Shown here piece after piece: positions 2,571 to 14,309 of a stretch of DNA of 16,461 bases. The position numbers and the translations under genes are program-made. Each line of letters begins with the position of its first letter. The stretch's first letter is position 1. Source of the DNA: Candidatus Hermodarchaeota archaeon (GTDB taxonomy: Archaea > Asgardarchaeota > Hermodarchaeia > Hermodarchaeales > Hermodarchaeaceae); NCBI GenBank assembly GCA_016840065.1, contig JAEOTB010000105.1:1-16461 (forward strand), given 5' to 3'. The notes under the pieces are model-generated. The model had not been told where the DNA came from. It made no database searches and saw only the letters and a list, made by a program, of their open reading frames with translations.

Positions 2571-3044
2571 TTATATTCTATTTAGTGTTGCTTGTATTCT
2601 TCGCCAGTGTCTACCCTGCCAGTAGACTTGCCGGCAGTCCTTGTTGGTGCATTGCCAGTAGAGGGTGAACTGGTTAAAGGAGCGGGCAGGCACTCTGTCC
2701 TTGACCTCTTCTGGTTGTGCATGGGCTAGGCGGGCGTTACAGAGGGAGCAACGGCTCTTGCTGGGATTGAGGATGAACTCTGTACCCAGGTATTCTTGGA
2801 GGCGGCGGAGCATCTTGTATATGGGGCGAGAGCCGGGGTTGAAGACCTTTAGTCCGCGGGTCTGGGCCCTGGTGATTAGTTCCTTGTCCCTGGTGAGTAG
2901 GATACGGTCTTCGGTGGCGATGAGGATGTCGTCGTCGACCCAGTCGTTGCAGAAGATGGTGTCGTAACCGAGGAGCCTGAGCCATCGGGCTAGGCTCCCG
3001 TACATGCCATCGAGGATGAAGGTGGGTCTTTCCTTTTCAGCCAT
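2571..3044 (-). CDS. Mut7-C RNase domain protein (PIN fold with zinc ribbon)
   Basis: FILDGMYGSLARWLRLLGYDT, DDD, RILLTRD, SRCSLCN and YWQCTNKDCRQVYWQGRHW match the Mut7-C family signature. Confidence 0.93.
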   Translation of the reverse strand: MAEKERPTFILDGMYGSLARWLRLLGYDTIFCNDWVDDDILIATEDRILLTRDKELITRAQTRGLKVFNPGSRPIYKMLRRLQEYLGTEFILNPSKSRCSLCNARLAHAQPEEVKDRVPARSFNQFTLYWQCTNKDCRQVYWQGRHWRRIQATLNRI

Positions 3045-3772
3045 TACTCTGCTTGCCCCTGTTCGATTTTCTTGATTACGTGTTTGATGACCTTACAGAC
3101 GACTTCATCTTTTTCGGTTTCGAGGGCGGTGTTGAGGGAGGCGATGACGGAATCGCCCATGTTGATGAGGGTGAGGGCGGCTCCGACTTGGAGGTCGGGG
3201 TCGTGGAGGGCTTGGAGGAGCGGTGCGACCGCGGGGGCGCCTATCATCGCAAGGGCTGTGGCGCTTTGGGCGAGGACCTCCTTGTCGTCGCTACGGAGGG
3301 TTTCGATGAGGGCGGGGATGGCGGGGACGCCGATTTCGCCGAGGCTGAGGGCGGCGTAGGAGCGGTAGGTTTCGTCTTTCAGGAGGTCGATGAGGGGAGC
3401 AACAGCGGGTTCACCGATTCTTTCGAGGGTACGGGCGATAATGTTCATTACATCGACTTCAGAGCCCTTCATCTTCTCGATGAGGGGGGTGACAGCGGGT
3501 TCACCGATCATGGCGAGGACGGCGGCACACATGGTTCGGGCTTCTTTGTCTTCGAGTTCCTCTAGCAGAGGTATGATGGCGGGTTCACCGATTCCTCCCA
3601 AGGCGGCTGCGGCGCTTACTGCTGCTTTTTGTTCGGAATCTTTCAGGACCTTTATCAGGCCTGGCACCGCGGGTTCACCGATGGTGATGAGGACGCGGAT
3701 TGCCTCGACTCGTATGTCACGGTTAGTGTGGTGTAGAGCTTCGATGGCTCGCTCGATATCTTGTTTACCCAT
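3044..3772 (-). CDS. HEAT-repeat (PBS lyase HEAT-like) protein
   Basis: About 7 repeats of AAxALxxIGEPAVxPLIxxL. GGAGG lies 8 nt before ATG 3772 (alternative start GTG 3778). The stop overlaps the Mut7-C start (TAATG). Confidence 0.92.
   Translation of the reverse strand: MGKQDIERAIEALHHTNRDIRVEAIRVLITIGEPAVPGLIKVLKDSEQKAAVSAAAALGGIGEPAIIPLLEELEDKEARTMCAAVLAMIGEPAVTPLIEKMKGSEVDVMNIIARTLERIGEPAVAPLIDLLKDETYRSYAALSLGEIGVPAIPALIETLRSDDKEVLAQSATALAMIGAPAVAPLLQALHDPDLQVGAALTLINMGDSVIASLNTALETEKDEVVCKVIKHVIKKIEQGQAE
3405..3682. repeat. Four identical 14-bp intragenic repeats GCGGGTTCACCGAT
   Basis: Copies at 3405-3418, 3495-3508, 3579-3592 and 3669-3682 (spacing 90, 84, 90). They encode IGEPA of the HEAT repeats on the minus strand. 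Confidence 0.9.
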
Positions 3773-3810
3773 TTGCACAACCTCCAGTTGCCAGCTTTGG
3801 ACTTCCTGCC

Positions 3811-3821
3811 TTTTTAATTAT
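3811..3821 (-). promoter_or_regulatory. Possible internal TATA-like promoter for the HEAT/Mut7-C pair
   Basis: ATAATTAAAAA on the minus strand, about 40 nt upstream of ATG 3772, overlapping the Staygreen stop codon. Confidence 0.35.
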
Positions 3822-4321
3822 CGTAACTCAACTGCCTGCTGTCTCTCTTTTGCCTTTTCTTGAGTGTATTCTCCCATTGTTTGCCAGTACTCAGTCCAGT
3901 CATTTCCTTTAATTTCGGGGTGAATGTGAATAAAGACTTTGGACTGGTCGAGGTTGGGAGTCTTATCGAATAGGTGCCGGTCACCATAACGGATAGCTTC
4001 TAACGCTCGGGGAAAATAGCTGCGAAGAACTGCTGTGTACAAATATGAGATAAAGACTGAGCGTTCGATATTGCAGTGGGCGTGGAGTGCATAGCCTTCC
4101 GGTTCTTGTTTCCATTCCGCCAGGAATTCAACTAGCAGGAATAGAACGAACATGCTAGTGTTCTCTCTGCGGTGATAGTCTGGCCCTATTGTCAAGTAAA
4201 GGTCGCTACCAATGTCAGCATGAACAAGTGTGTAGTGGCGGGGAATTAAGGGGCCATCTGCGTGGTTTGGGGGGATGAACTCTACATGAAGCTTTGGGAA
4301 ATATGACCAGCTCAAAACCAT
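3818..4321 (-). CDS. Staygreen (SGR, Mg-dechelatase-like) family protein, divergent
   Basis: KLHVEF, PLIPRHYTLVHAD, LYLTIG, LAEW, LHAHC, ALEAIRYGDRxLF, PNLD and EYW follow the Staygreen family pattern in order; GAGGG directly upstream of the ATG. Confidence 0.88.
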   Translation of the reverse strand: MVLSWSYFPKLHVEFIPPNHADGPLIPRHYTLVHADIGSDLYLTIGPDYHRRENTSMFVLFLLVEFLAEWKQEPEGYALHAHCNIERSVFISYLYTAVLRSYFPRALEAIRYGDRHLFDKTPNLDQSKVFIHIHPEIKGNDWTEYWQTMGEYTQEKAKERQQAVELR

Positions 4322-4329
4322 CCCTCAGG

Positions 4330-5223
4330 CTATCCTAGTTTTAGTTTCCAGTATAGGCCCTGGATTGCCAGGTCAATCTGGTATTGGTGATATCTTCCGT
4401 CTTCTATCCAGTGTTGTGAGCGTTTACCGAAGTACTCTGGTAGGCTAGGGTGCTGGAGAACCTCATCAATTGGTAGCTGCTGGGTTTTGAGTTTTTGTAT
4501 GGCAGAGACTAGTTCGTCGAAGTAGCTTCTGACCTTAGTGATGTAGGGTTTGCCGACCACGTCTCCGTGTCCAGGTATTACGTATGCGATATCGAGAGTT
4601 TCCCATTCCCTCCATATCTCTATCATTCTCATGAGATTGCCGACGACTTGGGCATACCAGGTGAGTAGGTTATCACCAGTCCATAGGGTCCGCTTTGAGG
4701 GGCTGTAGATGCAGGCTGAGTCTGGTGAGTGTCCTCCTGTTACTCGGAAGACGAGTTCCTGCTCCTCTGGTCCAATTCTTTGTTCGTTCTTCACGCTCAG
4801 GCTGGGTTCTACGAGCTGTAGTTCCCCAATCGCGTCACTGCGTTCACGGTCAGCCCTGAAGTGTCTGGCTAGTCGTAAACGGTAGCCAGGTTTCTCAAGG
4901 TTTCTAATGTATTGCTTGATTTTCTCGGTACACTTCTTTGACGCCACTATTGTTACGTCTTCAAAGACCTTCAGAGCGAAGGTGTGATCTGAATGAGAAT
5001 GAGTGAGGAGCAAGTGTGAGGTTTCACGACTGAAGCGGTCTTCCATGTCGTTGCGGAATCTTTGTGTGTAGGAGGGGAGTGCTCCACTGTCAACAAAGAC
5101 TAACTCGTCTGGGAGTGCTACGCAGGTTATAGTGGAAGTTCGGGCAGGGCCAAGCGCTGCGGTGGGAAATTCAGGATTAGCATAAGTGGTGATTATGTTA
5201 TCTGTGACCTCGATGTATTCTAT
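4330..5223 (-). CDS. MBL-fold metallo-hydrolase; N-terminus extends beyond the tracked ATG, probable ATA start
   Basis: THSHSDH, GGHSPD, TGDNL and PGHG motifs. The first MBL motif (LVFVDSG) lies in frame upstream of ATG 5046, and the frame is open up to TAG 5236-5238. Confidence 0.88.
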   Translation of the reverse strand: MEYIEVTDNIITTYANPEFPTAALGPARTSTITCVALPDELVFVDSGALPSYTQRFRNDMEDRFSRETSHLLLTHSHSDHTFALKVFEDVTIVASKKCTEKIKQYIRNLEKPGYRLRLARHFRADRERSDAIGELQLVEPSLSVKNEQRIGPEEQELVFRVTGGHSPDSACIYSPSKRTLWTGDNLLTWYAQVVGNLMRMIEIWREWETLDIAYVIPGHGDVVGKPYITKVRSYFDELVSAIQKLKTQQLPIDEVLQHPSLPEYFGKRSQHWIEDGRYHQYQIDLAIQGLYWKLKLG

Positions 5224-5235
5224 TCCTGTCCACTC

Positions 5236-5976
5236 CTAATCACGAGGGAACTCGCCAGCGATAACGATGCCGCGGTGTCCGCCCAGGAGGACGTTGTAGT
5301 TCTTGCGTTTGTACTTGTACTTAATGTACCAAACAGGGGCGTGGACGTATTGGGCTTCGCCAACAGTGAAGGCGGTGTGAATCTTGACGATGCGGTCTAC
5401 ATCCTTGCTAATGAGGTGTCGGTGGTGTTCTTCCACCTCTTGTTGTACCATTTCCACGGCTTCATCCTTTGTGAGTTGTGCGTTGATGACTTCGGCGTAT
5501 TCAGGGACTCTTCGGAAATCATAGGGCTGTGTTCCAGCTGCTGGGAAGTCAAATTCCTTCGTTGGGAACCCTGCTCGTCGACGGGCAAGAATCAGCCAGT
5601 TGTAGGATTTCTCCAGGTTGTCCTGTTTTACATACGCAGGAGAGACCCGATCGAAGATTCCCTCATAGGCTGTTAGTGCCCTGACCTCCACTACCCAGAA
5701 AGGTAGGAGCCGGAGTTGTTGACTTGTGATTTCCGATTTGCGGTGGAGGTCAGCGCGTTTAAGGAAGCCTTTTCGCATCCAACTCCGCACCACTGGCTCC
5801 ACAGCTTCTTCCTCAATCTTTAGGGGTAGCATGGAGTGCTCAAACATGAAGGGTTTACTCATCTCGACGACTTGGGTGTTACCGCAGTAGGGGCAGGTGG
5901 TTATGACCTCGCCTGCTTTGTAGTCGAGGGATCCGTCGCAGTTTTGGCATCGAAGGCTTCGCAGAATCTTAGGCAT
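5236..5976 (-). CDS. Zinc-ribbon domain protein (N-terminal CxxC...CPYCG; LPFW and PVW motifs)
   Basis: CQNCDG and CPYCG, LLPFWV, HAPVWYIKY, G.VIAGEFP. GAGGT lies upstream of ATG 5976, which is preferred over TTG 6003. Confidence 0.85.
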   Translation of the reverse strand: MPKILRSLRCQNCDGSLDYKAGEVITTCPYCGNTQVVEMSKPFMFEHSMLPLKIEEEAVEPVVRSWMRKGFLKRADLHRKSEITSQQLRLLPFWVVEVRALTAYEGIFDRVSPAYVKQDNLEKSYNWLILARRRAGFPTKEFDFPAAGTQPYDFRRVPEYAEVINAQLTKDEAVEMVQQEVEEHHRHLISKDVDRIVKIHTAFTVGEAQYVHAPVWYIKYKYKRKNYNVLLGGHRGIVIAGEFPRD

Positions 5977-6020
5977 TAGGGTAGACCTCAAAGATTGAAA
6001 CAATGAACAGCCACATAAAC

Positions 6021-6028
6021 TTAATTAA
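6021..6028. promoter_or_regulatory. Palindromic TATA-like element TTAATTAA, candidate bidirectional promoter
   Basis: Lies in the 88-bp gap between the divergent starts at 5976 and 6065, about 45 and 37 nt from them. Confidence 0.5.
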
Positions 6029-6064
6029 AGTATATTGATTATCTCTTTGCTGGAGTTATTTGTT

Positions 6065-7231
6065 ATGCGGTTAGCTGCGTTGCGGACGAGAATGATATGG
6101 GCCCTATTTGTGGTTTTCCTCGTAGCTGTTCTCTTCTGTCTGGTGATGTCGTATATTATCGATATTATCCTCGGATACTTCTTGTTTAACGAGAATTTCT
6201 TTGCATTGCTGAACCCATGGACCATCCCCTTCATAGGGATTGAGATATATTATCCAAGTGGTTGGTATTGGGCGTTCATCGCCGCCTTTATCATGGTTCT
6301 CTTCCAATGGGCGATTGGTCCAGCAGCTGTCAGGGCTGCTGTCCAGTTGAACTACGTCGATGCAAAATCAGGTGGCAGGTTTTATCGTGATGTGAAAGAA
6401 CTTGCTAACAAAGCAGATATTCCAATGCCCAAGGTGGCAGTGGTGAATAGCCCTGTTCCGAATGCCTTTGTTTTTGGACGCACTGCTGGTGGTGCTACGC
6501 TGGCGGTCCATAAGGGGCTACTCGACAAACTTAGTAACCGTGAAATCCGTGGAGTACTCGGTCACGAAATCGGGCATATCAAGCACCGGGACATCGTTGT
6601 CATGACCCTTGCGTCGTCGATTCCACTCATCGCCTTGATGGTGCTACGAGGCTCCCTCTATGGTGCCCGCGGTGCCTCCTACTCTGGTCGTAGCAGTTCC
6701 AGTGACGGTGACGGCGCTGGTGCGCTCATCATAGCGCTCATCGCGATTGCAGTTGTTGCTGCTATCGCATTTGGTTTGTCTCTGTTAGCAGTGAGAGGGT
6801 TGAGCCGGATGCGTGAGCACTACGCGGATTCGTATTCAGGTGAACTCACTGGTGACCCTCGGGCACTTAGTTCTGCCCTAGCGCGTATCACCTGGGGGCT
6901 TAGTTTAGCTGAGAAGGCTCCGAGTTCGGGATTGCGAAGCTTCTATATTGGTGACCCTAAGCAGGCCGCTTCTGAGGTTCGTTATATCAGGGAACATCGT
7001 CGCGAGTTTGATTTGGACCGTGATGGGGTTCTTGATGAACGAGAGCTGTTGACGGCGATGGAGAGTGAAGCGAAGCGTCAGAAACTAGCCGGGATTAAAG
7101 CGTCGCTGAGTACTCATCCACCGACCTACAAGCGTATTCTTCTTCTCTATGATCTTGAGGAGGAACTCGGTCAACGACGCCGCGCCAAGCCTGTTAGCAG
7201 CGAAGATAGCCCTGGCCTTGATGAAATCTAG
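6065..7231 (+). CDS. htpX: Zinc metalloprotease HtpX (peptidase M48), long form with EF-hand-like loop
   Basis: N-terminal TM helices, PNAFVFG, HEIGH zinc motif, REHYAD, STHPPTYKRI; GGAG upstream of ATG 6065. Confidence 0.95.
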   Translation: MRLAALRTRMIWALFVVFLVAVLFCLVMSYIIDIILGYFLFNENFFALLNPWTIPFIGIEIYYPSGWYWAFIAAFIMVLFQWAIGPAAVRAAVQLNYVDAKSGGRFYRDVKELANKADIPMPKVAVVNSPVPNAFVFGRTAGGATLAVHKGLLDKLSNREIRGVLGHEIGHIKHRDIVVMTLASSIPLIALMVLRGSLYGARGASYSGRSSSSDGDGAGALIIALIAIAVVAAIAFGLSLLAVRGLSRMREHYADSYSGELTGDPRALSSALARITWGLSLAEKAPSSGLRSFYIGDPKQAASEVRYIREHRREFDLDRDGVLDERELLTAMESEAKRQKLAGIKASLSTHPPTYKRILLLYDLEEELGQRRRAKPVSSEDSPGLDEI

Positions 7232-7300
7232 CTTACGATCCTAGAAAGGAATCAAATCGTGTCTTTCTCACTTGATTTCAGGTTTGGAGCTTGAACAGGA

Positions 7301-7322
7301 AACATTAATAGTATCAGTGCTG
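7301..7322 (+). promoter_or_regulatory. TATA-like promoter, copy 1 of a motif shared with the next paralogue
   Basis: AACATTAATAGTATCAGTGCTG, upstream of GGAGG and ATG 7342. Confidence 0.6.
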
Positions 7323-7341
7323 TAAGGACTCTGGGAGGATT

Positions 7342-8181
7342 ATGATTTCTCTAGGTTCAAACAGATTCCGATATGGAATAGTCTTACTAAGCTTCCTACT
7401 TCTTCTGATTACTCCAGCATTAATACCTCATCTAGCTCAGGTTTCAGTGCTAGAACAACAGAGGGAACTAGAGCGCAGCTCAGCAGACCCGAAAGTAAAC
7501 ACCCTTGATATTTTTGGAACCAAAGGCTATCAAGGATTGGATGATAACTACGAACCCAATAACGACAGAACAACTGCATATGACCTTACATCGCTTGAAC
7601 GTAATTGGTTGAATGTAATCGATGGCTATGGGTACCAACACGACGATGATTGGTATGAAATCGAGATTACTTCTGGTTACCAATCTCTCGACGTGGCTCT
7701 GATATTTACTCACTCAGCAGGCAACCTAGACATCGCAATTTATACCAGCGGAGGTTCACTAGTAACCTCTAGCAGCTCCCAAACCGACAACGAATACATC
7801 GACACCTACCTATCCGGTAGTGGTACCTACTACATCCGAGTCTATGGTTTCAACACTGGAAACAGTTACAATATGTGGTGGGACGACACACAGTATGGAA
7901 CGACCCCTCCAACTACTACAGCACCGCCAATTCCTCCTCATGCAACAGCTCAGACTACCTACATGTTAACTCTGATCGCAGTCATTGTTCTGATTGTAAT
8001 AGTTGTGGTGATAACAATTCCCGTTGTTGTGTATTATAAGAGGCGAGGCCGTCGTGTGGTGGAGCCTATTGAGGGCACGCGTCCTCATTCAGGGCAACCA
8101 GGGTTGTGTCCTCGGTGCAAGTCTCCCGTCAAGCCAGGTGCTGCCTACTGTAAGTTCTGTGGAGAATTGATGGGTGAGTAA
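7342..8181 (+). CDS. Single-pass surface protein: signal peptide, one PPC-type domain, Thr/Pro linker, TM helix, cytoplasmic zinc ribbon
   Basis: Hydrophobic N-terminus; DDNYEPNND...DDDWYEI...GNLDI...GTYYIRVY; TTPPTTTAPPIPP; TM followed by KRRGRR; CPRC...CKFCG. Confidence 0.88.
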   Translation: MISLGSNRFRYGIVLLSFLLLLITPALIPHLAQVSVLEQQRELERSSADPKVNTLDIFGTKGYQGLDDNYEPNNDRTTAYDLTSLERNWLNVIDGYGYQHDDDWYEIEITSGYQSLDVALIFTHSAGNLDIAIYTSGGSLVTSSSSQTDNEYIDTYLSGSGTYYIRVYGFNTGNSYNMWWDDTQYGTTPPTTTAPPIPPHATAQTTYMLTLIAVIVLIVIVVVITIPVVVYYKRRGRRVVEPIEGTRPHSGQPGLCPRCKSPVKPGAAYCKFCGELMGE

Positions 8182-8250
8182 CACTCTCCTCAGCGAAAGG
8201 TCCACGGCTTTCCTGCTATCCCAGTTATCAGACTAATCTACCATAAAGGC

Positions 8251-8273
8251 AAGATTAATACTATCTAGTGCTG
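8251..8273 (+). promoter_or_regulatory. TATA-like promoter, copy 2
   Basis: AAGATTAATACTATCTAGTGCTG, nearly identical to 7301-7322. Confidence 0.6.
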
Positions 8274-8283
8274 AATCAGAAAC

Positions 8284-9168
8284 GTGAGACCCATCATGCT
8301 GAAACACAGGAAAGTAAGAACTGGAGTCTTCCTATTAGCGGCGTGTATGCTTTTGTTAGTCCTACCCCTATTTTCGGGTTCAACCCAGCTACTTTCCCCA
8401 GATCAAGGAGCAACGGCTAGCTCTCAGACGAGGGATTTGAAACAGAGTTCCTCTGAACCGTTTGTGAAGGATTTTCAGACTGATGATGCCTACGAACCAA
8501 ACGATGACAGGACTTCTGCCTACGACCTATCCAATGATGAGCGTACCTGGCTGAGCACAATAGATGGCCATGGTATTCAATGGGATGATGATTGGTACCG
8601 GATCTATGTTAGCTCCGGGAATTCCCACTTGAACGTGGAGCTCACCTTCACACACTCACTTGGGGACATCGACATAAGGGTCACTGACAATGCTGGCTCC
8701 ACCGTTGCGTCAAGCACAGGTGTGTCGGACAACGAAGATATCAGCGTAGATGTTTCAACAGGTTACTACTATCTTCGAATCTACTATGATGACGCTGGTA
8801 ACGCTTATGATCTCTGGTGGGACGATTCGACTTCGGGTACAACACCCACAACAGGTTTCCCGGGACCATTCTTCTTTCTGATATTCTTTATAGTTGGAAT
8901 AGCAGCCTTTGTCATTATCATCGTCGTAGTTATTGTCTGTGTAGTGGTCATTGTGAGGAGGACCTCTTCTCCGAGAAGGCCTCCAATACGCAGACCTGTT
9001 CCAGCAAGACCTTCTACTCGCAGACGGACTACAACAGAATCTGCAAAGACTAGACCTAAGCCTAGCCCAGCAACACCTACTGGACCCACCATTAAATGTG
9101 CCAACTGTGGAAGCTTCATAGAACCCGCGGATAAATTCTGTGTTGGCTGCGGCCAGGAAGTCGATTAG
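8284..9168 (+). CDS. Single-pass surface protein paralogue 2: signal peptide, one PPC-type domain, TM helix, Arg/Pro-rich linker, zinc ribbon
   Basis: DDAYEPNDD...DDDWYRI...GDIDI...GYYYLRIY; long TM; CANC...CVGCG. Start is GTG 8284 or ATG 8296. Confidence 0.88.
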   Translation: MRPIMLKHRKVRTGVFLLAACMLLLVLPLFSGSTQLLSPDQGATASSQTRDLKQSSSEPFVKDFQTDDAYEPNDDRTSAYDLSNDERTWLSTIDGHGIQWDDDWYRIYVSSGNSHLNVELTFTHSLGDIDIRVTDNAGSTVASSTGVSDNEDISVDVSTGYYYLRIYYDDAGNAYDLWWDDSTSGTTPTTGFPGPFFFLIFFIVGIAAFVIIIVVVIVCVVVIVRRTSSPRRPPIRRPVPARPSTRRRTTTESAKTRPKPSPATPTGPTIKCANCGSFIEPADKFCVGCGQEVD

Positions 9169-9282
9169 CCCTATAGAGGATTGAGCACCCACATTCCGAA
9201 ATATTTACGAAATGTTAAAAGGGTGGAAATCCCCTTGTATGAATACTCTAATACAAGCTGTTAGAGATTTTGGGGTTGTAGA

Positions 9283-11376
9283 ATGCGTTTTCGATATGTG
9301 CTCTTAGGGATGTGTGGTTTACTCCTGCTGAGTCTGTTCCTAGCTCCTCAAACGAGTAGAGCTGGACTTTCCCTTACCACTCCATCCGCATATGATTTTA
9401 GTGATGATTTTGATTCCTTCAATGCGACCAATTGGGATGTGTACCTCTTTCGTTCACCAGACTTTGATTATGATTGTGGTACATACGTTGATGGTGAAAC
9501 CTGGGTCTACTGTTCGTACATGACCACTGGCACAAACAGTGAATACAACGGGTACCGCTTCGTCCACGAGCTAGCAGCACCGTATACAGATGAATTCCAG
9601 GTAGAAACGGAAGTTTGCTGGAGCGCAAGTAGTACTTCTTCAATTTACAAAGTAGGTATTCGGTTGTTGTCTCCAACTGATGACCCAACGGACAATGAAG
9701 CTTTCCGGATTCGAGTCGCATTCAATGACCCGTGGTCCGCCTCTGGAGGTAACAAGAAGGTCAACATCGAAGGAACAATCACCCAGACAAGCACTCTTCC
9801 CCTCAGCGGTCGAGGAGAAATCCGTATTGGACGAAATGCTACAAATGGTATTTTCGTTTACTGGGATGATGCGTTGATTGCGGAGGGCGAATCTTCTTCA
9901 ACCATATCGAAAATCGCTCTCGAAATTCACGGTCATGACGATTACACGGGGGGGTCCGGTGGTATCAATTATGTGTACTGCCAATCTAGCTTCACACCCT
10001 CTGAAGACAATTACGAACCCAACAATGACAGAACCTCAGCCTATGACCTTTCATTGCAGGAACAAACATGGTTGAGTACAATCAACGGATCTGGTGTCCA
10101 GTTTGATGATGACTATTACGAGATCGATGTCACCTCTGGTTTCGAGGACCTCCTTGTGGAACTTTCTTTCACCCATGCGTTTGGTGACCTCAACCTCGAG
10201 GTCTACGACGCCGTAGGCACCTTCGTGACAGGCAGCTACTCCGTCACCAACGACGAATACATTGACGTTTCCCTTCCCTCTAGTGGAACTTACTATTTGC
10301 GTATCTTTAATGCGGATAATGGGAACACCTACGACCTCTGGTGGGACGATGGACAGGACGATGACGCATACGAGGAGAACGACGCGAGAACATCAGCTTA
10401 TGACCTCTCCTATGATGAACAAACCTGGCTGAGCACGATTGGTGGGCTTGGAGCTCAGTGGGATGAGGATTGGTACGAACTCTACATGACACCTGGATAC
10501 ACGTTCCTCACCGTGGAGCTCACATTCGACGACACATATGGTGACCTCAACCTCGAGGTCTACGACGCCACTGGCACCTTCATAATAGGCAGCTACTCAA
10601 CAACAGATGACGAATACATCATCACTAATCTTCCAGATGATGGAACATTCTACTTACTCGTCTTTAACGCTAATAATGGCAACACCTACGACCTCTGGTG
10701 GGACGACACACGGTACGATGACGCATACGAGGAAAACGATTATTGGTCGACCGCTTACGACCTCTCGTCTTATGAAGATGAGTGGTTGAGTGACATAGAC
10801 GGCTTTGGTATTCAGTGGGATAGTGACTATTTCGAGATTTACGTTAGTTCGGGAGAATCTCGGTTACAAGTTTGGCTCGATTTCACCGATTCTGAGGGAG
10901 ACCTTGACCTACAGATTCTTGATAGCGATGGCGATAATGTCGCATCAAGTACATCAGTGTCCGATGATGAATACCTTGACATCACCGTTACGCCTGGAAT
11001 ATACTATCTCAGAGTCTACTACAGTAATACTGGTAATATTTACGATCTCCGTTGGCTTAGTTCAGTATCCGACACGACCACGACCACAACGACCACGACG
11101 TTTACCCCTTCTCCTATCCCCTTGCCACTCCTAATGTTTATATTGGCTTTAGGCGTCATTTCTATCCTAGTCGTAATCTTTGTTATCATCACCATTTTTC
11201 TGATGAGAAGGAAGACCTCAAGATCCTCGCGAATCAGTGTATCCGAAAGACCGTGGGCGCCAGCGTCAACCAGACCGTCTGACCAGCATGGCGCAGTTGC
11301 AATGTGCCCCAATTGTGGAACCACCATCGAGCCTTCAGATCAATATTGTTTGCGGTGTGGAAAGCTACTCCGCTAG
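9283..11376 (+). CDS. Single-pass surface protein paralogue 3: signal peptide, beta-rich N-terminal domain, three PPC-type domains, poly-Thr stalk, TM helix, zinc ribbon
   Basis: Three repeats of about 119 aa starting EDNYEPNND, DDAYEENDA and DDAYEENDY; nine consecutive Thr; TM followed by RRK; CPNC...CLRCG; NAT, NAT and NGS sequons in the ectodomain. Confidence 0.9.
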   Translation: MRFRYVLLGMCGLLLLSLFLAPQTSRAGLSLTTPSAYDFSDDFDSFNATNWDVYLFRSPDFDYDCGTYVDGETWVYCSYMTTGTNSEYNGYRFVHELAAPYTDEFQVETEVCWSASSTSSIYKVGIRLLSPTDDPTDNEAFRIRVAFNDPWSASGGNKKVNIEGTITQTSTLPLSGRGEIRIGRNATNGIFVYWDDALIAEGESSSTISKIALEIHGHDDYTGGSGGINYVYCQSSFTPSEDNYEPNNDRTSAYDLSLQEQTWLSTINGSGVQFDDDYYEIDVTSGFEDLLVELSFTHAFGDLNLEVYDAVGTFVTGSYSVTNDEYIDVSLPSSGTYYLRIFNADNGNTYDLWWDDGQDDDAYEENDARTSAYDLSYDEQTWLSTIGGLGAQWDEDWYELYMTPGYTFLTVELTFDDTYGDLNLEVYDATGTFIIGSYSTTDDEYIITNLPDDGTFYLLVFNANNGNTYDLWWDDTRYDDAYEENDYWSTAYDLSSYEDEWLSDIDGFGIQWDSDYFEIYVSSGESRLQVWLDFTDSEGDLDLQILDSDGDNVASSTSVSDDEYLDITVTPGIYYLRVYYSNTGNIYDLRWLSSVSDTTTTTTTTTFTPSPIPLPLLMFILALGVISILVVIFVIITIFLMRRKTSRSSRISVSERPWAPASTRPSDQHGAVAMCPNCGTTIEPSDQYCLRCGKLLR
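10003..11060 (+). repeat. Three tandem intragenic domain repeats with a 357-bp period
   Basis: Exact matches at offset 357: 10182-10212 = 10539-10569 (31 bp), 10324-10349 = 10681-10706 (26 bp), 10358-10376 = 10715-10733 (19 bp). Confidence 0.9.
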
Positions 11377-11522: not shown

Positions 11523-12917
11523 TTGATTGATAAGCTGCAAAAGGCGGCCGAGCATGGTCAGAGCCTAGGTGCCACTTATGTGGAGCTGCGGGCCGAGGAT
11601 CGGGCTCGGACAAATATCGAGTATGAAGACGGACGAGTCCGCAGCATCAGCCAGCGGCTAGAGGAGGGTGTAAGTATCCGCGCTCTAGCTGGCGGGGGCT
11701 GGGGCTTCGTTTCGTCAGCGAACCTCTCACTGAAGGCTTTGAAGGCATCAGTGAAGGCTGCTTACTCTCTTGCAAAGAGTGCAGGGAAAACACGACGTGA
11801 TCCTGTAGAGCTAGCCGAAGTTAAACCAGTAAAAGATAAGGTAAAGTTGAAGCTCGCCAGGAGTCCCGCAGATGTCGAACCACAGGAAAAAATCGCTTAT
11901 GCGGAGAAAGTATGGAAAGAAGCCCAACGCCTTGACAAGCGCATGTCCGCTATCACGGTGCGGCTACGCGATGGCGTGGGGAAGAGATACATAGTCACCA
12001 ATGAGGGCACAGAAATCGATATGGACATCGGGCACGTTCATCTCTGGAGCTGGCTTACAGGGAAGGACGACGGAAAGATGACCGGTGCCAGGGATGAATA
12101 TGGATCCACCAATAAGGGCTGGGAGTACTTCGAAGAGGAGATGCCACCCGAGCCCTACGCTGAGATACTGACAAAACGTGTTCAGCTACTGCTCAAAGGA
12201 GCGACTCCGAAAGCTGGTAGTTTCCCTTGCGTCTTTGGGGGAACAATTGTTGGGGTGCTTGCCCATGAAGCTCTCGGACACCTTGCGGAGGCAGATCTGA
12301 CCGTACAAAGTGCTTTCGCTGGAAAAACAGGGACGGAAGTCGCACCCAAGGGAACCTTCATGGTTGATGATGGAACGTACCCAGACGGTTTTGGTACCGC
12401 AAAATACGACGAGGAAGGCGTCCCCACTAGTAAGGTTGAAATCATCAAGGATGGTGTGCTACACCATCTTTTGACAAATCGGGAATACGCCCAGAAAACT
12501 GGTATGCCTGTTTCAGGAAACGCCAGAGCGGAGGACTACCGGTATGCCCCAATCATCAGAATGCGTAACACCTTCTTTGAGAAGGGCGATATGCCTGATG
12601 AAGAACTCTTTGAGGGCATCGACTTCGGATACCTCTGCATGAGCGTTGCTGGGGGCCAGGCTGGGATGAACGCCAGTTTTCAGTGTGGTGTGCAAGAAGC
12701 CTTCGAGATTGTGAACGGCGAGGTTGGACAGTCGGTTACAACTCTGTCTATCTCGGGTATCGCCACCGAGGCGCTTCTAAAAATCCAAGGCATCGGTAAA
12801 GACAAGTTCCACATGGGGCCTGGACGCTGCGGTAAGGGTCAAGAAGCCCTGACTGGAGACGGTGGACCCCTCATCCGCTTTGATAAGGGACCGATAACCT
12901 TTGGAGGCAAGGACTAA
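11523..12917 (+). CDS. tldD: TldD metalloprotease (catalytic subunit of the TldD/PmbA family)
   Basis: HEALGHLAEAD (HExxxH), YDEEG, SGNARA, PIIRMRNT and GRCGKGQ with the zinc-ligand Cys; TTG start. Confidence 0.95.
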   Translation: MIDKLQKAAEHGQSLGATYVELRAEDRARTNIEYEDGRVRSISQRLEEGVSIRALAGGGWGFVSSANLSLKALKASVKAAYSLAKSAGKTRRDPVELAEVKPVKDKVKLKLARSPADVEPQEKIAYAEKVWKEAQRLDKRMSAITVRLRDGVGKRYIVTNEGTEIDMDIGHVHLWSWLTGKDDGKMTGARDEYGSTNKGWEYFEEEMPPEPYAEILTKRVQLLLKGATPKAGSFPCVFGGTIVGVLAHEALGHLAEADLTVQSAFAGKTGTEVAPKGTFMVDDGTYPDGFGTAKYDEEGVPTSKVEIIKDGVLHHLLTNREYAQKTGMPVSGNARAEDYRYAPIIRMRNTFFEKGDMPDEELFEGIDFGYLCMSVAGGQAGMNASFQCGVQEAFEIVNGEVGQSVTTLSISGIATEALLKIQGIGKDKFHMGPGRCGKGQEALTGDGGPLIRFDKGPITFGGKD

Positions 12918-12926
12918 GGAGGTGCT

Positions 12927-14309
12927 GTGAAGATGAAAGATAAACGAGAAGAATTGTTAGCACTCGCAGAAAAGGCAGTAGCCTTTGGTTCAAAGCATGT
13001 AGACCAAATCGAAGTTTACATGCAAGACACCTTCAATACTGAAGCTGAACTTCAGATAGGACAGATTAACTCAGCGAACCGGTCCCAAGATGCTGGAGCC
13101 GCCATCCGCTGCCTTGTAGGCAAACGTTTAGGGTGTGCATTCACGAACAAACTGGATCAAGCAACAATCCAGAAGGCTGTCAAGCAAGCAATCGCTGCAG
13201 CCAAATCGAGCACAGAAGATGCGACTTTGAAAAGTTTCCCCACTAAGGCACAATATCCCAAGGTTAGTGGAACTTGGGATGAAGCGATTCTCGAAAAAGA
13301 TTCGAGCGTCTTTGTCGATTTACTGGCAGAGACCTCCCAAAAAGCTGCCACTCAGAGCGAGGGGGGTATTGTTGGCCAAGCAGGGGTAGGCTCAGTCTTT
13401 GGCTGGTCAGCCTATGCTAACTCTCTAGGAGTTGGCGCAGCCGATCGGACCACCGTAGCCTACATCTACATCGTTCTTTTGGCTCCCACCCCAACTGGGA
13501 TGACCCCTGGCATCTTAGAAGTCGATGTCAAACGAAGTTTTAACTTAGATTTAGACCGAGTCGTGAACGACGCCGTCAAGTATCTTCAGGTGGCAAAGAA
13601 CCCAGCTGAAGGAGAGACGGGACCCAAGACTGTGGTCTTTACGGGTAACGCTCTTGGAACTCTTCTCTTCTTTGCCCTTCTTCCCTCGGTTCGAGGTGAC
13701 GGCATTGTACGGGAGAAGTCAAGAATCGCAGACAAACTTGGTGACAAAATTGCTTCAGAGTCTCTCTCCTTCCTTGATGATGGACTTCGACCTGGAGCTT
13801 GGGCGACTTCCCTCTTTGATCATGAGGGCGTTCCCAGGCAATCAACACCCGTCATCGAGAAGGGTAAGCTGAAATCCTTCATCTGGGATACCTACTGGGC
13901 GAATCGTCATGGCGTAGAGAGTACCGGGAACGCCTCGCGGAACATGCGAACTGGAGTGATAAGTATCCAACCCTCCACTCTCGTCGTTCCACAGGGTAAA
14001 GGCTCCCTAGATGACCTAATCAGTGACATAGCTGATGGCTACCTCGTTAGTGGACTGCAAGGTGCCCACTCTAGCAACCAGGACACAGGCGACTTTAGCG
14101 TCGTGGCAAACCCATGCTTCCGCATAATCGACGGGGAACTCACTGGTTGCATCAATGGTCAAATGGTATCGGGTTCTGCTTTCGACCTCATCCAGAAAGT
14201 CGACAAGCTCGCTGGTGATAGCCGACAATTCCTCCTACCAGGAGGAACAGCCATCCACGGCCCTTCAATAAGCTTCAGCGATATCCAAGTAGTCGCAAAA
14301 GAGAGCTAG
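12927..14309 (+). CDS. pmbA: PmbA/TldE protein
   Basis: FDHEGVP, VIEKGKL, STGNASR, GAHSSNQDTGDFSV; no HExxxH motif; AAGGAGGTG RBS; directly follows tldD. Start is GTG 12927 or ATG 12933. Confidence 0.93.
   Translation: MKMKDKREELLALAEKAVAFGSKHVDQIEVYMQDTFNTEAELQIGQINSANRSQDAGAAIRCLVGKRLGCAFTNKLDQATIQKAVKQAIAAAKSSTEDATLKSFPTKAQYPKVSGTWDEAILEKDSSVFVDLLAETSQKAATQSEGGIVGQAGVGSVFGWSAYANSLGVGAADRTTVAYIYIVLLAPTPTGMTPGILEVDVKRSFNLDLDRVVNDAVKYLQVAKNPAEGETGPKTVVFTGNALGTLLFFALLPSVRGDGIVREKSRIADKLGDKIASESLSFLDDGLRPGAWATSLFDHEGVPRQSTPVIEKGKLKSFIWDTYWANRHGVESTGNASRNMRTGVISIQPSTLVVPQGKGSLDDLISDIADGYLVSGLQGAHSSNQDTGDFSVVANPCFRIIDGELTGCINGQMVSGSAFDLIQKVDKLAGDSRQFLLPGGTAIHGPSISFSDIQVVAKES

Follow-up and report, generated by a model that had tools for sequence, protein, structure and literature searches.

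Introduction

The collagen-binding domains (CBDs) of the clostridial collagenases ColG and ColH and the pre-peptidase C-terminal (PPC) domain of B. anthracis collagenase (1NQD, 4HPK, 3JQW, 5SV5) are beta-sandwiches of ~115 residues that carry the motifs E-x-N-D and D-x-x-D-x-Y and occur in tandem copies. In the clostridial collagenases the domain lies C-terminal to a secreted collagenase. Here we describe units of the same build that stand without any protease, on membrane proteins, in three adjacent genes of a 16,461-nucleotide contig (JAEOTB010000105.1, C109 in our numbering; hereafter the window, that is, the whole stretch analysed) from Candidatus Hermodarchaeota archaeon. The source metagenome-assembled genome (MAG), G000, has a size of 2.59 Mb and is 84% complete. 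The open reading frames (ORFs) 7342-8181, 8284-9168 and 9283-11376 are called genes 1, 2 and 3 and their products P0001, P0002 and P0003. These products are probably surface-anchored, non-catalytic PPC binding proteins that end in a general tail made of a transmembrane (TM) helix, a linker and a zinc ribbon.

Surface proteins with PPC domains are known, as are membrane proteins with zinc ribbons; their combination is confined to one genus-level clade, and a search of the literature available to us found no publication describing a PPC-TM-ribbon architecture. Asgard and other archaeal PPC surface proteins and clostripain-related peptidases, which occur in MAGs of Promethearchaeota, Thorarchaeota, Hermodarchaeota and Hodarchaeota, share with the window proteins the PPC subfamily (units 50-63% identical), a signal peptide and an acidic ectodomain. 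They differ in ending with P-G-[FY], a TM helix and a basic tail, or in having no anchor; many have a catalytic domain (C11, S8 or M-type) and none in the set inspected has a cytoplasmic ribbon. Membrane proteins of the Zn_ribbon_2 type (PF13240, PF13248 and PF12773 DZR) have the same ribbon consensus, F-CPxCG-x8-[FY]CxxCG-x-L, in the cytoplasm and near a TM helix. They are commonly annotated with an N-terminal ribbon followed by the helix (type II), whereas the ribbon of the window proteins stands at the extreme C-terminus of predicted type I proteins; we know of no function established for this family. Asgard TM-ribbon-RING proteins, which are candidate membrane E3 ligases, combine a signal peptide, an ectodomain, a TM helix and a basic linker with a ribbon of the same Pfam type, but continue into a RING finger where the window proteins stop. 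Haloarchaeal S-layer glycoproteins (Halobacterium, Haloferax) resemble the window proteins in their signal peptide, acidic ectodomain and Thr-rich stalk beside a C-terminal anchor; unlike them, they are large, lattice-forming proteins that end in PGF-CTERM or a plain TM segment, and they have no cytoplasmic ribbon and no sequence relation to the window proteins.

Architecture and predicted topology of the three proteins

A preliminary description of this DNA had read the three genes as adjacent paralogues built from a signal peptide, acidic domains, a Thr/Pro stalk, a TM helix, a basic segment, a linker and a terminal ribbon, and every one of these elements is found in the translations. The features, with window coordinates, strand and evidence (aa, amino acids), are as follows.

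7342..8181, plus strand: gene 1, P0001, 279 aa, with putative signal peptide, a single PPC domain, Thr/Pro stalk, TM helix, basic linker and zinc ribbon
7528..7902, plus strand: gene 1 PPC / collagen-binding-type domain, aa 63-187 (Pfam; 51% identical to the P0002 unit)
7957..8037, plus strand: gene 1 TM helix, aa 206-232 (hydrophobicity, charge bias)
8107..8160, plus strand: gene 1 zinc ribbon CPRC-x10-CKFC, aa 256-273 (translation; DZR and Zn_ribbon_3 scores under cut-off)
8284..9168, plus strand: gene 2, P0002, 294 aa from GTG 8284, or 290 aa from the likelier ATG 8296 (orthologues P0005-P0009)
8467..8841, plus strand: gene 2 PPC domain, aa 62-186, the modelled unit (pLDDT 94.8; Foldseek ColG/ColH CBD)
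8863..8955, plus strand: gene 2 TM helix, aa 194-224 (hydrophobicity, charge bias)
9097..9150, plus strand: gene 2 zinc ribbon CANC-x10-CVGC, aa 272-289 (best conserved orthologue segment, 87%)
9283..11376, plus strand: gene 3, P0003, 697 aa, with putative signal peptide, N-terminal domain, three tandem PPC domains, poly-Thr stalk, TM helix, linker and zinc ribbon
9355..9987, plus strand: gene 3 N-terminal extracellular domain, aa 25-235 (homologues in the sister genus)
9988..11070, plus strand: gene 3 tandem PPC domains, aa 236-356, 354-476 and 474-596 (Pfam, tree)
11116..11205, plus strand: gene 3 TM helix, aa 612-641 (hydrophobicity, charge bias)
11305..11358, plus strand: gene 3 zinc ribbon CPNC-x10-CLRC, aa 675-692 (translation, Pfam)

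Gene 2 most likely starts at ATG 8296 and not at GTG 8284, because the database gene model (P0004) and all orthologues begin with MLK. In a search of its own genome, P0002 retrieves P0003 (E 1.7e-51) and P0001 (E 7e-47), so the paralogy of the three genes is far beyond chance. The ectodomains are strongly acidic, contain 0 (P0001), 1 (P0002) and 5 (P0003) Cys residues, and carry paired motifs: DDNYEPNND then HDDDWYEI in P0001, DDAYEPNDD then WDDDWYRI in P0002, and EDNYEPNND/FDDDYYEI, DDAYEENDA/WDEDWYEL and DDAYEENDY/WDSDYFEI in P0003. A Thr/Pro stalk is present in each protein (for example SDTTTTTTTTTFTPSP), as is one strongly hydrophobic helix (Kyte-Doolittle 3.3-3.9), after which come the basic segments KRRGRR, RRTSSPRRPPIRR and RRKTSRSSR in P0001-P0003. 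The 47-70 residues that follow the helix, ribbon included, are basic and Pro-rich; their Cys residues are exactly the four of the ribbon, whose CxxC-x10-CxxC pattern finishes 2-6 residues before the stop. When Lys and Arg are counted in the 15 aa on either side of the helix, all three proteins have 0 before it and 6 after it. By the positive-inside rule they are therefore predicted to be single-pass, N-out/C-in proteins with the ribbon in the cytoplasm, where the preliminary description had placed it.

No catalytic domain was found in P0001-P0003 by Pfam and NCBIfam scans, as originally stated. In the same scans, at E<=1, recognised output or partner-binding domains (HisKA/HATPase, MCPsignal, Pkinase, zf-HC2) are absent and the tails match zinc-ribbon families only. 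The end typical of PGF-CTERM / archaeosortase A substrates (TIGR04126: P-G-F, helix, short basic tail) is likewise absent from the three proteins. Spacers of 102-146 bp precede the genes, and since every one has an AT-rich TATA-like element we infer that the genes have separate promoters.

The extracellular units belong to the PPC / collagen-binding type

Pfam PPC (PF04151; curated gathering cut-off 25.9 bits) matches P0001 at 32.7 bits, P0002 at 32.6 bits and P0003 at 58.3 bits in three stretches, which agrees with the 1, 1 and 3 copies counted earlier. Sixty PPC units of ~118 residues each were aligned, residues 62-186 of P0002 were modelled with AlphaFold2 (AF2), and the model (pLDDT 94.8, pTM 0.88) was run against the PDB with Foldseek. 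The best matches are ColG s3b, the ColH CBD and the B. anthracis collagenase PPC domain (1nqd, 4hpk, 5sv5, 3jqw; TM-score 0.66-0.80, probability 1.00), and archaeal and bacterial subtilase C-terminal domains rank next. The profile of the unit has no match among PDB sequences at E<=0.01; it aligns end to end with ColG s3b, weakly (E ~0.03), with E-x-N-D on ENND and D-x-x-D-x-Y on DSRDYY, and sequence identity of the window units to the ColG/ColH domains is only 17-21%. Because the sequence profile reached ColG/ColH only at E ~0.03, the fold assignment rests on Pfam and Foldseek. The acidic motifs occur in all five window units and are invariant or nearly so across the 60 aligned homologous units; in the 1NQD/1NQJ work of Wilson et al. 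in 2003, the ColG s3b motifs are said to chelate two Ca2+. Pfam, the modelled fold and the motif alignment with ColG s3b together confirm the assignment of the repeats as PPC / collagen-binding-type domains, at the level of sequence and structure prediction, and Ca2+ binding by the window units can be expected on well-founded grounds.

The first inventory of the ectodomains listed these PPC domains correctly and left out an extra N-terminal domain of ~210 residues in P0003. Pfam has no family for this region (aa 25-235) at E<=10, a word-based homologue search with it returned P0003 alone, single-sequence AF2 gave no usable fold (pLDDT 35), and a profile of five homologues had no match among PDB sequences. 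Apart from one more distant genome, only the sister genus has homologues. In one genome (G018; L047 1366-2232, minus strand) the domain stands alone, as a 288-aa protein (38% identical) anchored at its C-terminus, and in another (G015) it adjoins a CBM96 module in a protein of >1100 aa. It may be a carbohydrate-binding jelly-roll.

The zinc ribbon is the best conserved segment

The ribbons have the features of the Zn_ribbon_2 type, namely two CxxC knuckles ~10 residues apart, a Gly after each knuckle (the first replaced by Lys in P0001) and an aromatic residue before the second. The P0003 ribbon scores above the Pfam cut-off (Zn_Ribbon_1, 25.5 vs 25), those of P0001 and P0002 score below it (17.7-19.7 bits vs 27), and several P0002 orthologues have precomputed PF13240/PF13248 matches. 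P0002 has five full-length orthologues (P0005-P0009; 56-60% identity), which form a supported clade in the tree (99/92); one of them carries the NCBI name 'Promethearchaeota archaeon'. Mean pairwise identity in this group of six sequences is 87% for the ribbon, 74% for the PPC domain, 51% for the TM helix, 34% for the linker and 25% for the spacer ahead of the domain, and conservation of the ribbon reaches its non-Cys residues (KCPNCGSxIEPADKFCVGCGK). Since no other segment of the orthologues is as well conserved, and since this extends beyond the Cys residues, the ribbon appears to have a specific role of its own in the cytoplasm; the linker between helix and ribbon, which is disordered and 23-46 residues long, would act as a flexible tether.

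An NZF/RanBP2-type ubiquitin-binding finger, which has the same CxxC-x10-CxxC spacing, was considered for the ribbon and dropped: there is no Pfam match, and the first knuckle is followed by G-S/T, unlike the T-F pair that we take to be usual in NZF fingers. A precedent for a ribbon with a partner at the archaeal membrane is offered by Haloferax CdpC, whose C-terminal zinc ribbon binds FtsZ1 in a zinc-dependent manner (bioRxiv 10.64898/2026.07.16.738847).

All five direct P0002 orthologues keep the ribbon, in support of the preliminary description. The C-termini of ~260 PPC homologues in total were inspected (148 of the 3006 proteins that match the PPC unit at E<=1e-3 in an exhaustive search, and 116 word-search matches), and the ending of TM helix and ribbon is found in these five orthologues only. 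A PGF-CTERM-like end (P-G-[FY], TM helix, basic residues) is present in ~50 of the ~260. The largest number of repeats that we note is in P0027, a metagenomic protein of 6725 aa with 55 matched stretches of the unit. Many of the matching proteins of 2000-4500 residues have a common conserved C-terminal motif (...CFFRL.V..P...).

The same tail is used on other proteins of the genome

Among the G000 ORFs a scan counted 23 in which a C-terminal ribbon comes after a TM helix vs 7 in which an N-terminal ribbon comes before one, and 30 ORFs, membrane-bound and soluble, end in F-CPxCG-x8-[FY]CxxCG. The TM-linker-ribbon tail is also carried by a Peptidase_C11 (clostripain) plus PPC-like protein of contig C110, by one Peptidase_M6 (contig C34) and by two tandem SBP_bac_5 proteins; these are the type I cases in which the ectodomain is large. 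Contig C37 (1-5638, L052) encodes three tandem SBP_bac_5 paralogues, of which two are complete, both with the tail; this 9.3-kb contig has no ABC permease or ATPase, and besides these two holds only the third paralogue and a hydrolase. Most genomes of the family have clostripain-type ORFs (620-730 residues) with a match to the tail. Its presence on proteases and solute-binding proteins of the same genome makes the tail look like a general anchor, a C-terminal module of this genome and not a dedicated receptor device. The proposal that the layout marks a dedicated sensor or receptor family is thus not upheld, given a tail shared with the C11 plus PPC protein, the M6 peptidase and two SBP_bac_5 proteins, a ribbon that ends 30 ORFs, and no output domain.

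The tail is one anchor among others. At least ten G000 ORFs end in IPGFP, a hydrophobic helix and RRRR (for example C108:3744-6881, C126:3062-4881 and C76:5623-7245), and since such PGF-CTERM-like tails are also in use the ribbon tail is an alternative anchor, not the sole one. The archaeosortase model PF09721 has no match in G000, in its congener G003 or in the related genome G026, and is itself insensitive, being positive in only 1/14 control genomes; TIGR04125 gives weak matches (27-33 bits vs a cut-off of 75), the sole one in G000 at C105:6735-6971.

Are the proteins nevertheless true transmembrane receptors, in which ligand binding or clustering by the PPC domains is transmitted through the single helix so that the ribbon recruits or releases a cytoplasmic effector? 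We consider this unlikely. Strong conservation of the ribbon well beyond its four Cys residues would suit such a role, and a cytoplasmic domain has been kept where a cheaper PGF-like anchor exists in the genome; the three proteins have no known output domain, however, and the locus has no conserved cytoplasmic partner gene. Variable ectodomains, 46-56% identical between the paralogues and 56% between genomes in which the neighbouring M48 peptidase is 91% identical, are also what one might see in receptors, as are SBP-type domains on the same tail. Against this, the tail is found on enzymes (clostripain, M6 peptidase) and the ribbon on soluble proteins, and the linker, being disordered and of variable length (23-46 residues), would be a poor conduit for a conformational signal.

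G000 also encodes type I proteins in which the ribbon is followed by a RING-H2-like finger (CPHC...H..H...CPYC), at C5:23256-25307, C21:941-3001 and C25:25698-28487; in the last of these zf-RING_2 scores under its cut-off. The ribbon-RING proteins have propeller-like ectodomains of GG repeats and one TM helix, and further examples are found at C5:25320-25754 and C5:25877-26446. A RING finger is absent from P0001-P0003 by Pfam, and the proteins stop 2-6 residues after the fourth Cys, therefore no E3 activity can be proposed for them. The tail might be conceived as the RING-less half of an Asgard ectodomain-TM-ribbon-RING design, its ribbon docking PPC binders, proteases and solute-binding proteins to one machine of a ubiquitin/ESCRT-like or cytoskeletal kind. 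This idea is distinctly unlikely; if true, shared docking would give an archaeon a eukaryote-style sorting, clustering or retrieval of surface proteins.

Origin of the genes and their relation to clostripain-like proteases

In three related contigs the M48 gene is followed by a single PPC-TM-ribbon gene and then by TldD or, where visible, the contig end. From this single-gene order it follows that gene 2 is ancestral and that P0001 and P0003 were added in G000. The first and second PPC units of P0003 are sister copies (support 99/97), the only clear sister pair among the window units. Across the three genes the units are 46-56% identical, no closer to each other than to the PPC units of a G026 clostripain (53-63%). 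When window positions 6035-9168 are compared with contig C317 of G003, M48 is 91% identical and the adjoining PPC-TM-ribbon protein only 56%, a contrast typical of a fast-changing surface protein that would reflect either very fast evolution or replacement of the surface gene. The three genes are best explained as a small lineage-specific expansion of surface PPC binders.

The repeats had been described as detached from any protease. This is correct for P0001-P0003, none of which includes one; in evolutionary terms the units appear not to be truly detached, because related units follow the G026 clostripain and the C110 paralogue in G000 is itself a clostripain-PPC-TM-ribbon protein. The G026 protein (P0026) consists of a clostripain, 2 PPC units that are 50-59% identical to those of the window, and a PGF-like tail. 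Thus, the peptidase-linked context of PPC domains is seen in the C110 paralogue and in P0026 but not in P0001-P0003, and the window units seem to share a domain pool with the clostripain-like proteases of this lineage.

Such kinship could be taken to mean that the three genes are decaying remnants, functionless leftovers of clostripain-PPC-TM-ribbon genes that have lost the protease; a paralogue of that composition exists in the genome, and PPC units of this sort follow clostripains in relatives. The PPC domain of that paralogue is just 32% identical, however, so the window genes are not recent truncations. Three intact frames with signal peptides, retention of the P0002 group in no fewer than five further genomes or contigs, at 74% identity in the PPC domain and 87% in the ribbon, and Ca2+-motif residues that are invariant or nearly so also speak against decay, which we regard as extremely improbable.

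A model for PPC-TM-ribbon proteins

What would be the function of a binding domain joined to a generic cytoplasmic ribbon? The model that we favour takes as its basis the architecture, fold, charge-bias topology, paralogy, ribbon conservation and generic use of the tail observed here. Outside the cell, one to three PPC/CBD-type beta-sandwiches, probably stabilised by Ca2+, would be displayed, with the additional ~210-residue domain in the case of gene 3. The ectodomains would stand on a short, probably glycosylated Thr/Pro stalk, as those of archaeal surface glycoproteins usually do. The PPC modules, drawn from a pool of domains that in this lineage are also attached to membrane-bound clostripain-like proteases, are most likely non-catalytic binders of extracellular polymers or of neighbouring surfaces. 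In the cytoplasm, the TM helix, the disordered basic linker and the conserved Zn_ribbon_2-type ribbon, presumably with bound Zn2+, most likely tether the protein to a shared partner. Such a tether would serve positioning, retention or turnover, and relay of a ligand-specific signal is improbable.

Several points weigh against this model. Because PGF-like lipid-anchor signals are also in use, on at least ten G000 proteins, keeping a cytoplasmic ribbon is a choice, and the kept ribbon could reflect signalling. Solute-binding-type domains occur on the same tail, and elsewhere these are classical sensors. The bound ligand cannot be told from the PPC fold; the aromatic residues that presumably contact collagen in ColG are matched only in part by the window units, and collagen is not expected as a ligand of a sediment archaeon.

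As surface-anchored binders the proteins have ordinary ectodomains, since PPC surface proteins are common and already annotated. Two features are less ordinary: an entire group of type I surface proteins in an Asgard lineage keeps a strongly conserved ribbon in the cytoplasm despite the PGF-like route, and a membrane-proximal ribbon of the same type precedes RING fingers in other surface proteins of G000. If the ribbon is a common docking site, it offers a simple and testable handle on the organisation or recycling of the surface in the closest archaeal relatives of eukaryotes; if it is a mere anchor or topology lock, the locus is a routine lineage-specific gene expansion. What deserves attention more broadly is the conserved cytoplasmic ribbon of type I surface proteins in Asgard archaea, whether or not a RING finger follows it.

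Neighbouring genes

The following genes flank the three PPC-TM-ribbon genes in the window.

5236-6003, minus strand: 255-aa protein with an N-terminal zinc ribbon, divergent from M48 (pair kept in relatives)
6035..7231, plus strand: M48 (HtpX-like) peptidase, the upstream neighbour (adjoins a PPC gene in four contigs, also occurs without one)
11523..14309, plus strand: TldD/PmbA metallopeptidase pair, downstream, at 11523-12917 and 12927-14309 (a relative keeps the pair by Mut7-C and DnaJ)

In four contigs (G000, G003, one from JGI and one from ENA) a PPC-TM-ribbon gene has M48 directly upstream, and in at least two of them TldD lies directly downstream. This arrangement, and the fact that PPC domains classically accompany peptidases, might suggest that the locus is one proteolytic unit in which M48 and/or TldD/PmbA have the PPC proteins as substrates, adaptors or regulators. 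All four contigs come from one narrow clade, however, and the argument is drawn from neighbourhood alone. In the distant complete genome G019, M48 (49% identical) and its zinc-ribbon partner are kept with no PPC gene or TldD beside them; in Promethearchaeota DZ2M.269 (L039), Mut7-C directly adjoins TldD-PmbA-DnaJ without M48 or PPC genes. TldD and PmbA are cytoplasmic enzymes, and each PPC gene has its own spacer of 102-146 bp with a TATA-like element. We therefore regard such a unit as very unlikely. The pair of zinc-ribbon protein and M48 is kept in G003, the JGI contig and G019, and since it persists even in this distant genome it is apparently the part of the locus that is truly conserved.

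Because Mut7-C stands next to TldD-PmbA-DnaJ in Promethearchaeota DZ2M.269, the window block 3044-11376 (8.3 kb), which holds HEAT, Staygreen, MBL, the zinc-ribbon protein, M48 and the three PPC genes, would represent an insertion or deletion difference between lineages. TldD of the window shares 92% identity with its counterpart in a 'Candidatus Hermodarchaeota archaeon' MAG and 65% with the one in a 'Promethearchaeota archaeon', which points to a Hermod-type Asgard archaeon. The M48 peptidase has an EF-hand-like loop, FDLDxDGVLDExEL, with a weak PF00036 match.

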